Virus record (IMG/VR): IMGVR_UViG_3300030372_002865
Location: 1-46,417 of that record
DNA: 46,417 bases
Source of the DNA: a virus
Lineage: Duplodnaviria; Caudoviricetes
Direction: 5' to 3' (one strand)
Under the pieces are notes generated by a model. That model saw only the letters and a list, made by a program, of their open reading frames with translations. It did no database searches and was not told where the DNA came from. The translations under genes were made by a program, and so were the position numbers. The first letter of the stretch is position 1; every line of letters starts with the position of its first letter. Positions 6,098 through 15,865 of the stretch are shown piece by piece.

Positions 6098-6299
6098 CAG
6101 GGGCCCCTATAAGAGTATATGTGACCTTTATAGCCTATATGTTTTTTTATGTAAATATTTGCGTGGAACTGAGCTCTTGCAAGCGCAGCCAGAGATATAT
6201 GGGCCTCGCGCCTAGGCGCTTAAATTTTGGATTCTGGGGCTGGTAAATTGACACGATAGCAGCGGGCCCCGCGCCTATTTTCGCGAACCTAGGGCCAAG

Positions 6300-6530
6300 G
6301 ATTCGGAGCTGCTGCTGGAGCTGCTACCAGTTAGCATGACTCGCGCAGCTGCTTCCAGAATTCGCGGTCCAGCTGGCGCAGCTGCTGGAGCTCATACGAT
6401 TCAACGTGGACCATGGGGCGTGGTTCAGCAGCATTAACTGTGAAATTAAAAATACCGGGCATTTATAAAAAGAATAAAAAAAGGCCCTGTAACAGGGCCA
6501 ATTTTAGTGCAGCTGGAGCAGCTGCTAAAC
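6300..6530. repeat. Non-coding cluster of AGCTG/GCTGCTGGAGC motifs
   Basis: AGCTG occurs at 6307, 6319, 6347, 6371, 6380, 6511 and 6520 in the gap upstream of terL. Confidence 0.6.
6476..6500 (-). terminator. Intrinsic terminator
   Basis: GGCCCTG-TTA-CAGGGCC hairpin followed by a T-tract on the minus strand, just after ORF 6525..6743. Confidence 0.75.
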
Positions 6531-6743: not shown

Positions 6744-7503
6744 TTTTTATTTTCCCATAACTATTTTCATTTTCATTTTTATCGATGAGTCCAATATCTC
6801 CAGCCACATGGTGGCGTAATATTGACCTAGGCGGAAGGCCAGCAGCAAACCGCGTAATATGTTCCGCGTCGGATTCTTCCGTCGCAGCATTTGAATCGCG
6901 TCGCGATAAATCGGCCCAGTGTTTTGACACTGGGAAATTGCCAGCATAGCAGCCACCAGCAGCAGCGGACTCGGCAAGCTTTTTCTTGCTGCCATGCATC
7001 GTAAAGCCAATTACGTAACCGCGGTTCAATCTGCTGCAAAGCGGTCCATCGATTCCGCCACAATTAGCGCAGCTAATATCTTCTAAATATTCTGCTGGAC
7101 ACCTCACGACGCGAATCCCGTCAACAGTTTTATTTTTATTGCTGCTGCTCCAAAAAGACTCGCTTACCATGTGGACCGCATCCGCTCCAGCAGCTGTAGC
7201 AGCTCTAGCAGCTGCCCACGAATCCGCGCTGTAATTAATAAGCGTTTTACCAGCTCGCAATAATTTAGAATAAAATTTGTAATGAAAATGGGAAAAGGTA
7301 AAAGCATAACCGCCCTTTGGAACGGCGTTAATTAATGCATTTAAATATTCCGTATCAATCTTTTTCGTTCCTGTTTTACAGGCTGGCATTAGAGCGCAGC
7401 TGCTAGGGCAAGTTCCGTATTCATTACCGAATCCAGCTCTATAAGTAACCGCGATACCAGCGGTTTTTTTGGCAGTAGAAAGTTTTGTACAATTCAAAAC
7501 CAT
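6730..7503 (-). CDS. Cys-rich phage protein (DUF7227/gp88-like, possibly a degenerate radical-SAM-like Fe-S protein)
   Basis: Motifs KKTAGIAVT..TCPSSC, FTFSH, CPA..CANC..LC..IGF.MHG and GCYA..HW..LP..RHHVAGD. Has its own promoter and an ACGGAG RBS. Confidence 0.65.
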   Translation of the reverse strand: MVLNCTKLSTAKKTAGIAVTYRAGFGNEYGTCPSSCALMPACKTGTKKIDTEYLNALINAVPKGGYAFTFSHFHYKFYSKLLRAGKTLINYSADSWAAARAATAAGADAVHMVSESFWSSSNKNKTVDGIRVVRCPAEYLEDISCANCGGIDGPLCSRLNRGYVIGFTMHGSKKKLAESAAAGGCYAGNFPVSKHWADLSRRDSNAATEESDAEHITRFAAGLPPRSILRHHVAGDIGLIDKNENENSYGKIKNVTI

Positions 7504-7539
7504 TTTTAAAGCTCCGTAGTTAAATTAAAAATATAACTA

Positions 7540-8135: not shown

Positions 8136-8156
8136 TTTTATTTTCCTATATTAATT

Positions 8157-8227: not shown

Positions 8228-9385
8228 TTACGCAGCTGCAACACGACTCCAGTCGGAAGGGCTAAGGTTTAAAACTTGACCGCCTTTGCGCTGCCATTCG
8301 CTCCTATCATCGTCGTTGATTTCATCAAAATTTGAAACCGCAGTTACTGCATTCATCAGGGTTGCGCGACTAACAGGCTGGCCCACAAATCCGCGCTGCT
8401 GAAGGGTAGACATAAGACCTTCTAAAACATTTTTAGATTCAGCTTTTGTGAATTGCATTACCTTTGACAAATTATCTACCGCGGTGGTTGTGTCACATTT
8501 CACAGTATCTGTACCAGCTGCTCTAACCTTCTCTAGAACTTCGTCAAATTTTTCACGATTACTAAAATGCTTTACGTGAGATTCAATAGCTAGTTCTAAA
8601 GCTTTATTATCTGCTGCCTTAGCGTCTTCGGAAAGAATACTCCAGCTTTCAGTTTCTCTAGCAGAAGTAATATGCGCTTTACGAATTTTGTTTTCAGTCT
8701 CCATGCCATTTAGACATGCTAATGTCCAATACATTTGATAAACGCTAACAGATCCATGCCCAGTCTCTGAGTTTTGAACACCAAGTCCGTTTGCCATAAT
8801 GTCTCCGACGTTGGCGCCTTCTCCTGTATGATTACGCGCTTTGAAACGTGCATACAATTTTCGCTCAGTTATGTGATAATTAACCAGCTCAAACCCAGCC
8901 TCCGCGTCGAGAATAGGAAGAACAGAAGATGCCAATAGATGAGCATGGTCAAAAGTTTTATATCTATCGCTTAAAAGAGCTCTGCCTGTTAAATGATCTT
9001 CCCCAGCGTAACTGCCAGCATCATAGGTCCTGAGCAATTTAGGTTTATTTTCTTTTTGATGAACCGCATTAATCAAATTATCAAATTCGGTAGGATAGTT
9101 CTGCTGCAATCGTTTAGCCGTTCTGGAGTCTATTCCAGCGTTATCTGCAAATTGATTAAACGAAACATCGTTAAGTGAAACGAGCTGCGTATTATCCCCA
9201 TGAGTTGCCTCTCGGACTACTCTTGAGGTCCGCTCCTCTCCGTCCGATCTCGGTTCAATAGTCTCAAACTTGAGCTCACTCATAGGCGTTGGAATATCTA
9301 CCATTTTTCCTCGCCTCGTCTCTATTTCTGATATTAAATTATTAAGTCTAGATCGTGGGTCATTTGAATTATTAAAATCTAACAT
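8228..9385 (-). CDS. DUF932/DUF945-family protein
   Basis: RALLSDRY, NSETGHGSVSV and LACLNGM (CxNG motif). Confidence 0.8.
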   Translation of the reverse strand: MLDFNNSNDPRSRLNNLISEIETRRGKMVDIPTPMSELKFETIEPRSDGEERTSRVVREATHGDNTQLVSLNDVSFNQFADNAGIDSRTAKRLQQNYPTEFDNLINAVHQKENKPKLLRTYDAGSYAGEDHLTGRALLSDRYKTFDHAHLLASSVLPILDAEAGFELVNYHITERKLYARFKARNHTGEGANVGDIMANGLGVQNSETGHGSVSVYQMYWTLACLNGMETENKIRKAHITSARETESWSILSEDAKAADNKALELAIESHVKHFSNREKFDEVLEKVRAAGTDTVKCDTTTAVDNLSKVMQFTKAESKNVLEGLMSTLQQRGFVGQPVSRATLMNAVTAVSNFDEINDDDRSEWQRKGGQVLNLSPSDWSRVAAA

Positions 9386-9411
9386 ATTTATTTTCCTTAT
9401 TTAAATGTTAA

Positions 9412-10471: not shown

Positions 10472-10493
10472 TTTATTTTCCTTTCTAAATAAT

Positions 10494-12216: not shown

Positions 12217-12470
12217 AAAAACACCATTTCTGTATATATAGAGCAAAAAATAAAAAAAATAATTTAACTAAATCTAGGTGTAACCAACGTAACCCTGTAA
12301 CTTTTCATTTAACTCTTTATATTATAAGACTTTTTCAGTTACATTTTTAGTTACACTTTAAAATACAAATATGTAACCATACCCTTAATGTCCAAAATTG
12401 CCTTAAAGGGGGGTAAAAAGTTTTTTTAAAAAAAATAATTTCTGGCTATATAAGTAGAAATGTGTTTTTT
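12217..12470. repeat. Origin/pac-like element A
   Basis: GTAAC x3, AT-rich core, GTTAC x2, then GTAAC. Flanked by imperfect inverted arms AAAAACACCATTTCTGTATATA / TATATAAGTAGAAATGTGTTTTT. Confidence 0.6.
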
Positions 12471-13462: not shown

Positions 13463-13729
13463 TTATTTCTTTTTGATTTTTTTAGAAACGTCATCGTCTG
13501 ATTTAAAGAATTGCATGAATCTTTCTGTAATAACATCGCCATTACAGCGCTCGCAAGCTCTTCCTTTGCCAAAATCTTCAAAGGGCATGGGATTATTTCC
13601 ATATCCGTGATTATTTTTGCTGCCACAAAGCACACAATCGTAACGAGGAATACCATCAACAACCTTTATTCCGGGTAAGCCTGTTACGGGACAAATTTCT
13701 ATGCCTAATTCATTTTTTTCTTTTTTCAT
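13463..13729 (-). CDS. Small Cys-rich (Zn-finger-like) protein
   Basis: CVLC..GYGNNPMP..CERCN. GGAAAATAA leader and its own promoter. Confidence 0.7.
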   Translation of the reverse strand: MKKEKNELGIEICPVTGLPGIKVVDGIPRYDCVLCGSKNNHGYGNNPMPFEDFGKGRACERCNGDVITERFMQFFKSDDDVSKKIKKK

Positions 13730-13760
13730 TTATTTTCCTTTCTATAAATTCCTGGAATCA

Positions 13761-15001: not shown

Positions 15002-15013
15002 TTTATTTTCTCC

Positions 15014-15457: not shown

Positions 15458-15550
15458 CTTGTCACACCTGTCACACCTTAAAACTAACTTTTTATATATA
15501 AAAAAAATCATATAATAAAAGTTATAAATCACCTGTGACACTTGTGACAG
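15458..15550. repeat. Origin-like element B
   Basis: TGTCACACC x2, ~55-bp AT-rich core, then inverted TGTGACA x2. Confidence 0.65.
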
Positions 15551-15552
15551 AA

Positions 15553-15675
15553 ATAAAAAACCCCCAGACCTACGGAAATCTGGGGGTTTAAGGCTCAATG
15601 TCCACAGGCAAGAAGACAAGAGCCCTTTGGGAAACTAGATTTCAACTGGAAAATAAATAAAAAAATTGAAATCTA
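15553..15675 (-). ncRNA. Predicted three-hairpin antisense small RNA
   Basis: Promoter TTGATA-N17-TATCTA (15710-15682) places the start at the base of a perfect 10-bp stem. Three consecutive hairpins follow, the last a terminator with a T-tract. G-U pairs favour the minus strand. Confidence 0.6.
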
Positions 15676-15706
15676 AATACTTAGATAAGCGATTATATAA
15701 GATATA

Positions 15707-15865
15707 TCAAGCTTTATTTTGTAATTTTAATAAATTTTTTTTATATTCTTGAAAAATTACTCTTAACTGGCCGGAAATAGTTCTTCCTTCCTGACTAGAA
15801 AGCGATTTTATCTGTTCGTACACTTCACGAGGTACTAAAACACTCTTCCATTTCTTTGTATCCAT
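15707..15865 (-). CDS. Ribbon-helix-helix (CopG/Arc-like) DNA-binding protein, 52 aa (not in ORF track)
   Basis: MDTKKWKSVLVPREVYEQIKSLSSQEGRTISGQLRVIFQEY... fits a strand-helix-GRT-helix pattern. AAGGAG RBS and its own promoter. Confidence 0.75.
   Translation of the reverse strand: MDTKKWKSVLVPREVYEQIKSLSSQEGRTISGQLRVIFQEYKKNLLKLQNKA

Follow-up and report, generated by a model that had tools for sequence, protein, structure and literature searches.

The c4 RNA of phages P1 and P7 acts on a single target, the icd-ant operon. The comparison draws on PMC3203893, PMC7302621, PMC4351075, PMC11373665, PMC5320573, PMC2864571, PMC10149686, PMC9599517, PMC4615179 and PMC12197685. There, c4 is described as a phage-encoded, trans-acting RNA of three stem-loops, cut by RNase P from a longer transcript; two of its loops jointly act on the target, the loop seeds occlude the ribosome-binding site, specificity arises from co-varying seed and target, and the setting is temperate immunity (PMC5320573). 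Start-associated sequences (SAS) of Cluster K mycobacteriophages are short asymmetric repeats before the ATG of many non-structural genes, conserved past the Shine-Dalgarno sequence, and four of these genomes carry a single reversed copy without a linked start (PMC3203893). SAS occur in Cluster EF Microbacterium phages too, and papers of 2011, 2020 and 2024 state their role as unknown. The cuckoo/CcsR RNAs of alphaproteobacteria consist of 2-4 adjacent hairpins, in which the stems vary and the pyrimidine-rich loops are conserved (PMC4615179). The phage RNAs P22 sar, lambda OOP and PreS, VP882 VpdS, 24B_1 and BTP1 STnc6030 act through pairing on translation or stability (PMC12197685). The latter review tabulates 38 uncharacterised phage sRNAs, which could bear on novelty; searches of the open-access literature listed no paper on a phage RNA that addresses standardised leaders of many own genes.

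Here we describe a unit in a single contig of an uncultured marine tailed phage, 46,417 nt long, the whole of which is called the window. To judge from the sequences, the unit is a real, conserved and covarying candidate regulatory RNA. It is probably a phage sRNA gene with its own promoter and a terminator, whose loops 1 and 3 would pair in trans with early leaders of the same phage and block translation initiation.

The closest known systems are c4 by mechanism and the mycobacteriophage SAS by anatomy. Like c4, the sRNA has loop seeds that cover target ribosome-binding sites in predicted duplexes and that covary with them. Unlike c4, it consists of three side-by-side hairpins with no enclosing stem, and its separate loops would address separate gene sets, about eight genes in all. 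As to the temperate immunity context of c4, no integrase or antirepressor was found among the 63 proteins scanned in the window, which is probably incomplete. No Rfam family reached threshold over the unit (best match there NsiR1, E = 0.99, far from threshold; 10 matches at E<=5 in the window as a whole) or over the units in 20 related loci, and the c4 family (RF01695) was absent from those 10 matches and from the 20 loci.

The leader word GGAAAATAAA resembles SAS in being asymmetric, in one orientation and directly before ATG in all five minus-strand copies, with a single reversed copy (plus strand, 15648) unlinked to a gene start. Unlike in Cluster K, the 13-bp consensus is absent, the leaders differ entirely and the hosts are unrelated; moreover, the reversed copy is here part of a structured unit with promoter and terminator, and it covaries, whereas the texts consulted identify no RNA partner of SAS. 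The original prediction had also likened the unit to alphaproteobacterial anti-Shine-Dalgarno RNAs. That likeness proved loose: adjacent hairpins within the range of 2-4 and variable stems are common to both, but CCUCCUCCC, present in every cuckoo loop, is absent from all three loops of the sRNA, and the phage seeds are genome-specific and match phage leaders. The phage RNAs from sar to STnc6030, which the text consulted presents as cis-antisense to one gene or as parts of host- or Hfq-dependent networks, differ from a unit that would address standardised leaders of many own genes.

The unit and its genomic setting

The PolA of the contig is 48-56% identical to homologues of DSL-LC04, 023Pt_psg01, HTVC023P and HTVC027P, and its terS matches three of the same four phages. 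DSL-LC04 is a metagenome-assembled genome (PMC10611076), and HTVC023P-type phages are one of the most abundant marine phage groups (PMC10149686). Related genomes measure 57-62 kb. A blastn search against deposited phages gave short chance matches only, and related DNA at the region of the unit is present in four contig runs. The top five bins with relatives name five unrelated taxa; therefore, no host is claimed.

On one side of the unit lies a 52-aa ribbon-helix-helix gene, whose protein has tblastn matches in 122 sequence entries, counting duplicates. On the other side, small unknown genes follow one another in promoter-led cassettes between polA and terL. The region has 35% G+C. These genes are regarded as probably early on the grounds of their size, position and promoters. 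The coordinates are collected in Table 1.

Table 1. Features of the sRNA unit and of the leaders it is predicted to address (window coordinates)
Feature	Position	Strand	Basis or remark
52-aa ribbon-helix-helix gene, conserved upstream neighbour of the unit	15707..15865	-	passes the cut-off of Pfam RHH_5 (E=9.5e-7)
Predicted -35 box TTGATA, overlapping the ribbon-helix-helix stop codon	15705..15710	-	sequence; TTGACA there in the sister lineage
Predicted weak -10 box TATCTA, 17 nt from -35	15682..15687	-	sequence; TACTAT there in the sister lineage
Predicted ~125-nt sRNA, three hairpins and U tail	15553..15677	-	fold z -6.8
Loop 1 seed UUUUUUUAUUUAUUUUCC, antisense to GGAAAAUAAA leaders	15646..15665	-	identical in L216, L219, L240; absent from the sister lineage
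Conserved linker GUUUCCC	15627..15635	-	invariant in 5/5 aligned relatives; without leader target in the window
Hairpin 2, loop core GCCUGUG kept, stem replaced	15590..15626	-	without leader target in the window
Terminator hairpin; loop UUUCCGUAG (15578-15570), family-wide seed	15553..15589	-	terminator called 15589-15558
Leader of 65-aa gene (15001), GAAAATAAA, weaker match	15002..15010	-	sequence
Start region of 88-aa gene (13729), 18 bp with loop 1, one G-U	13719..13738	-	predicted duplex
Leader of 12142, 9 bp with loop 3, 13 bp with loop 1 into the start codon	12143..12157	-	predicted duplex
Leader of 192-aa gene (10471), GGAAAATAAA, 10 bp with loop 1	10472..10481	-	predicted duplex
Leader of 385-aa gene (9385), 12 bp with loop 1	9386..9396	-	predicted duplex
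Leader of 85-aa gene (8135), GGAAAATAAA, 10 bp with loop 1	8137..8146	-	predicted duplex
Leader of 257-aa DUF7227 gene (7503), CTACGGAG, 8 bp with loop 3	7512..7519	-	predicted duplex
Leader of 72-aa inner gene (6743), GGAAAATAAA, 10 bp with loop 1	6746..6755	-	predicted duplex

A minus-strand unit of three hairpins ending in a terminator had been predicted, and it is borne out: the fold has -47.6 kcal/mol (z -6.8 to -7.7), none of 200 shuffles was equally stable, and the terminator was called by prediction. The three-hairpin fold is shared by all 5 relatives that were compared, of which one is truncated on its 5' side. The promoter assigned to the unit stands in part. Both boxes are present, but the -10 box matches at 3/6 positions only and the promoter is absent from the 30 that were called; its position supports it, because the sister lineage carries TTGACA-N17-TACTAT at the same place. 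Of the hallmarks of a trans-encoded base-pairing sRNA, the unit has a called intrinsic terminator and an uncalled promoter in the window, with better boxes in relatives.

Loop 1 is predicted to be open, and loop 3 is partly closed by its own stem. Loop 2 had been described as without evident target; in agreement with this, none of its 7 window matches (9-11 bp) falls within a leader. In L001, of the sister lineage, one 5' region ~2640-2700 nt past the polA end matches loop 2 and the linker (10 bp each) as well as loop 3 of its own RNA; that gene is absent from the window, and the duplex energy there, -36.2, is slightly ahead of the -34.2 at an unrelated site (1007 windows). GGGCAAG stands at a similar position in homologous genes of L292, L286 and L288; the RNA loop of L292 reads GGUUGCCCC. 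UUGCC as a second family seed, pairing with GGCAA in 5' regions, was suggestive but unclean and was set aside; the GCAA may simply be a tetraloop.

Several further elements were noted in the surroundings. The spacer of the sRNA promoter holds TATCTTATA (15704), whose complement TATAAGATA is found in two early promoters and near the start of the replication module (10542, 9461, 23471), and kindred TAT(G/C)(G/C)GATA words recur at promoters of relatives; the pair is a candidate operator for the ribbon-helix-helix protein. Directly after the sRNA terminator, at 15460-15549, TGTCACA repeats form two inverted pairs flanking an A+T-rich stretch, an origin- or operator-like arrangement present in L200 too. 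Right after the polA stop and before a terminator, at 15959-15927 (minus strand), stands ACCUCCCU; a word of this type occurs at this place in 37 of 78 related loci and the sense word in none. Its opposite strand looks like a strong ribosome-binding site, with an ATG behind in 13/39 and no conserved frame length, and the region gives a weak Rfam match to SorX (E=0.011). Possibly, the 3' end of polA gives rise to a second RNA here, of generic anti-Shine-Dalgarno type. Farther away, four tail-region genes (41506, 41931, 42413, 45405, minus strand) have a common leader, GGAGACTTAGC(ATA), and several of their neighbours are phrog_11355 paralogues; these leaders are probably repeats of duplication or cassette exchange. 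Two further sets of repeats (6150-6420, 12260-12380), G+C-rich ones of the CAGCAGCT type ahead of terL and GTTAC/GTAAC ones ahead of terS, are possibly packaging or genome-end signals.

Leaders of the window and predicted duplexes

On the minus strand of the window GGAAAATAAA occurs five times (5' ends 13738, 10481, 9396, 8146 and 6755), and every copy belongs to the cassette region and is followed within 0-3 nt by an ATG. Models of order 0, 2 and 4 give 0.25-0.34 expected copies, against the five observed. The only plus-strand copy, at 15648, is loop 1 itself, with no gene start behind it; a 125-nt unit would contain the complement by chance with a probability of about 0.002 per word, a figure uncorrected for the post hoc choice of words.

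The original prediction named the targets gene by gene. The loop 1 complements before 6743, 8135, 10471 and 9385 and GAAAATAAA before 12142 and 15001 were found in their places; 6743, however, is an inner gene and not cassette-first, and the 11 nt given for 13729 were too short. For loop 3, the minus strand holds just two copies of CTACGGAG, one in each of the claimed leaders (7503 and 12142), but pairing with CUACGGAG is reached only by including one G-U pair, with only 4-6 bases of the loop predicted to be open.

The loop 1 duplexes, being AU-rich, are weak (about -10 to -13 kcal/mol, not counting the cost of opening the loop). The predicted pairing spans the GGA(G) Shine-Dalgarno core and in several cases the AUG too. 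An antisense duplex over this core or the AUG has the geometry that blocks 30S binding, and since the seeds lie there, repression of initiation is the likeliest effect. Activation or stabilisation of the messages through pairing with the leaders, or recruitment of a protein to them by the RNA, is improbable. The covariation described below is silent on the direction of the effect, and the sRNA promoter resembles the early promoters, so that the RNA may be co-made with its targets; nevertheless, the blocking geometry speaks against activation, and the leaders are AU-rich with no inhibitory hairpin visible over the ribosome-binding site. Terminator-like hairpins lie between early promoters and leaders at 10519-10493, 9437-9412 and 8185-8164 (minus strand), the first two being near-identical copies, and from this position the transcripts would begin within the 5' arm.

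Covariation of seeds and leaders

Covariation of the loops with the leaders, which the original prediction had proposed as a test, was found in sister lineages, in a genome matrix with its controls and in orthologous genes with different leaders. Among close relatives, L216 and L219 keep loop 1. L240, whose contig shows 94-95% protein identity, retains the linker together with loops 1 and 3; one stem-1 pair has become G-U, stem 2 is replaced and stem 3 is altered, and GGAAAATAAA stands before 4 of its starts and CTACGGAG before 2. In the sister lineage (L001 and its like), loop 1 is missing and an unchanged stem 1 closes a loop of 3 nt; loop 2 recurs unaltered on another stem, and loop 3 reads UCUCCAUG. 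The leaders of this lineage read ACAUGGAG. No copy of GGAAAATAAA was found in the contigs of L001 and L242, which overlap by 77 identical end bases, and ACATGGAG stands in 5/6 cassette-first early leaders of L242. L200 may be a counter-example to the covariation of loop 1 with leaders: its hairpins 2-3 are nearly identical to those of loop-1-bearing L216, six TTA(C/T)GGAG leaders fit loop 3, no start has GGAAAATAAA, and the contig ends before loop 1. The 26 metagenome matches to the loop-2 pattern comprised 9 true homologues and 17 chance matches; a loop-1 pattern scan returned mostly unrelated contigs, and L081-L196 were left out, as were 9 further loci without loop 2. A consensus fold (2/16 pairs with two-sided change) was dropped because MAFFT misaligned hairpin 1 of the sister lineage, and single folds were compared instead.

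Farther out, HTVC023P/DSL-LC04-like relatives have short promoter-seed-terminator units behind the same ribbon-helix-helix gene, with a seed word shortly before the terminator in 77 of 88 loci (at least 1.8 kb each, duplicated strains included, seed patterns drawn up post hoc). At least ten distinct seed/leader codes were found, with the pairs UUUAUUUUCC/GGAAAAUAAA, UCCGUAG/CUACGGA, UCCCGUAG/CUACGGGA, CUCCAUG/CAUGGAG, CACCUCAUAAAAA/UUUUUAUGAGGUG, CCUUCGUAG/CUACGAAGG, CUCCGUGU/ACACGGAG and UUCUCCAUUG/CAAUGGAGAA, and with GACUCCU/AGGAGUC and UUUGUGUG/CACACAAA, both predicted from the leaders of previously unused contigs. The nine orthologues of the 385-aa gene, that of the window included, have six leader types, each with its complement among the seeds of its own unit. 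At 8 bp or more, the L040 seed matches 5/9 own leaders and at most one in each of 23 other genomes, and the private seeds of L323 and L320 match 3/7 and 3/10 own leaders and at most one elsewhere. At this length loop 1 matches 6/11 leaders of the window, 5/8 in L240/L319 and 0/10 in the sister lineage; in 22 other genomes it never matches more than 3. Two seeds go with two leader classes in the L021 group. The ancestral seed of the family is loop 3. Loop 1, the second address, was likely acquired in the lineage of the window as an inverted copy of a gene start, as its 18-bp match to the 13729 start suggests.

Among deposited relatives, DSL-LC04 (32668) has UUCCUGUAUG before a terminator in a 3' untranslated region, complementary to its own repeated CAUACAGGAG leaders. 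The cultured HTVC023P has ACTAACAAA before four starts after terS (13057, 13767, 15285, 16137) and no reversed copy of it in the 26,859 nt examined. A related phage, L014, carries a glutamine riboswitch aptamer (RF01739, 55.9 bits, above threshold) at 8301-8351 (minus strand).

For the matrix, genes were called by a simple script in 49 non-identical contigs of at least 5 kb, of which 5 without an RNA zone were left out. Leaders were the 22 nt before cassette-first ATGs and RNA zones the non-coding stretches before terminators, with thresholds adjusted without regard to pairing. The best 12-mer of each zone was scored against the leaders of each genome using stacking energies, and the matrix was double-centred. 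Own-genome pairing was better than expected in 34 of the 44 genomes. With one genome per cluster, the permutation p was <=0.001 in 200/200 resamplings, at 15 and at 21 clusters, the clusters being defined by common 14-mers and not by phylogeny, so that their count is not the number of independent code switches. For 21 fixed representatives the own-pairing effect was -1.56 kcal/mol (p=5e-5). On the same representatives, three shuffled-zone controls gave 0.0, -0.12 and -0.18 (not significant) and an upstream target window (-50..-29) gave +0.07, while reverse-complemented zones retained a small signal (-0.43, p=0.004), partly expected because stems are self-complementary. The effect was -0.42 for the leaders of inner genes (p=0.03, 16 genomes) and -0.20 for those of the replication module (p=0.15, 14 genomes); early leaders in these 14 genomes gave -1.72, and cassette-first leaders reached about -1.7 in both sets.

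Pairing was no better than expected in 10/44 genomes. The zone finder missed the unit in 4 of these, the other six (L016, L047, L070, L071, L072, L249) being real weak fits; L025 has no recognisable seed. An exact 8-mer prediction found the unit in 6/20 mostly difficult genomes and succeeded in 2/5 contigs not used before.

That U-rich loops and CUCC words match A-rich leaders with GGAG by composition, or that an opposite-strand gene uses the reversed copy as its ribosome-binding site, is hardly credible. The G+C content of the region and the part of the anti-Shine-Dalgarno word included in all seeds would favour such chance matches. Against this, shuffled zones and upstream targets were without own-genome effect, private codes run 4-8 nt past the Shine-Dalgarno core, and the 20 seeds checked were always antisense with no conserved opposite-strand reading frame; chance is already largely refuted by these results.

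Alternatively, a phage protein such as the ribbon-helix-helix protein might bind the motif on DNA or RNA, with the reversed copy as one more site. The regulator gene lies directly upstream, and SAS have been proposed to bind RNA or protein (PMC3203893). This is very unlikely, as the odd copy is reversed in every genome that has one and lies in the loop or linker of a promoter-terminator unit, and the motif changes wholesale while the protein stays similar. In addition, 12/14 single leader changes are C>T opposite a seed G and keep pairing, although AT mutation bias could yield the same, which makes this wobble test weak, and 1 of its 13 genomes (L076) was misassigned to class.

A predicted timer and its meaning

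With pairing of the sRNA to leaders of its own phage as the preferred reading, its role is most likely a timer-like shut-off of early accessory cassettes. We infer that the sRNA would be transcribed from its own early-type promoter to the terminator and that, in the cell, loops 1 and 3 would base-pair with the ribosome-binding leaders of early genes and so block initiation. The stable RNA would accumulate after entry and turn the early accessory cassettes off with a delay, sparing the replication genes. As a by-product, co-infecting relatives with the same address would be silenced.

Immunity or exclusion could conceivably be the main job instead, with carrier-state repression and silencing of superinfecting relatives as for c4, and codes that diversify to escape. 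The number of codes and the fixed linkage to the ribbon-helix-helix regulator agree with it, and so does c4, where a 4-nt difference limits P1-P7 cross-reactivity (PMC5320573). We consider it rather unlikely: apart from the missing integrase and antirepressor in the probably incomplete window, CCGUAG-type seeds cross-pair widely between genomes, and with this core common to 50/88 loci most relatives would cross-silence. Nevertheless, exclusion is compatible with the shut-off explanation as a second role.

The switching-off of early phage genes is usually ascribed to proteins. The predicted unit would extend trans-acting antisense control by phages to one RNA with many leaders, and the natural codes, at least ten, are ready-made compensatory pairs that could also serve as roughly orthogonal translational switches. 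Such a circuit turns the function of SAS, unexplained since 2011, into a directly testable question. More tentatively, a large group of marine phages may possess an RNA address code, in which one sRNA would control an accessory regulon through standardised leaders, captured inverted gene starts would provide new addresses and diversified codes would define exclusion groups, and which may explain the SAS of actinobacteriophages.
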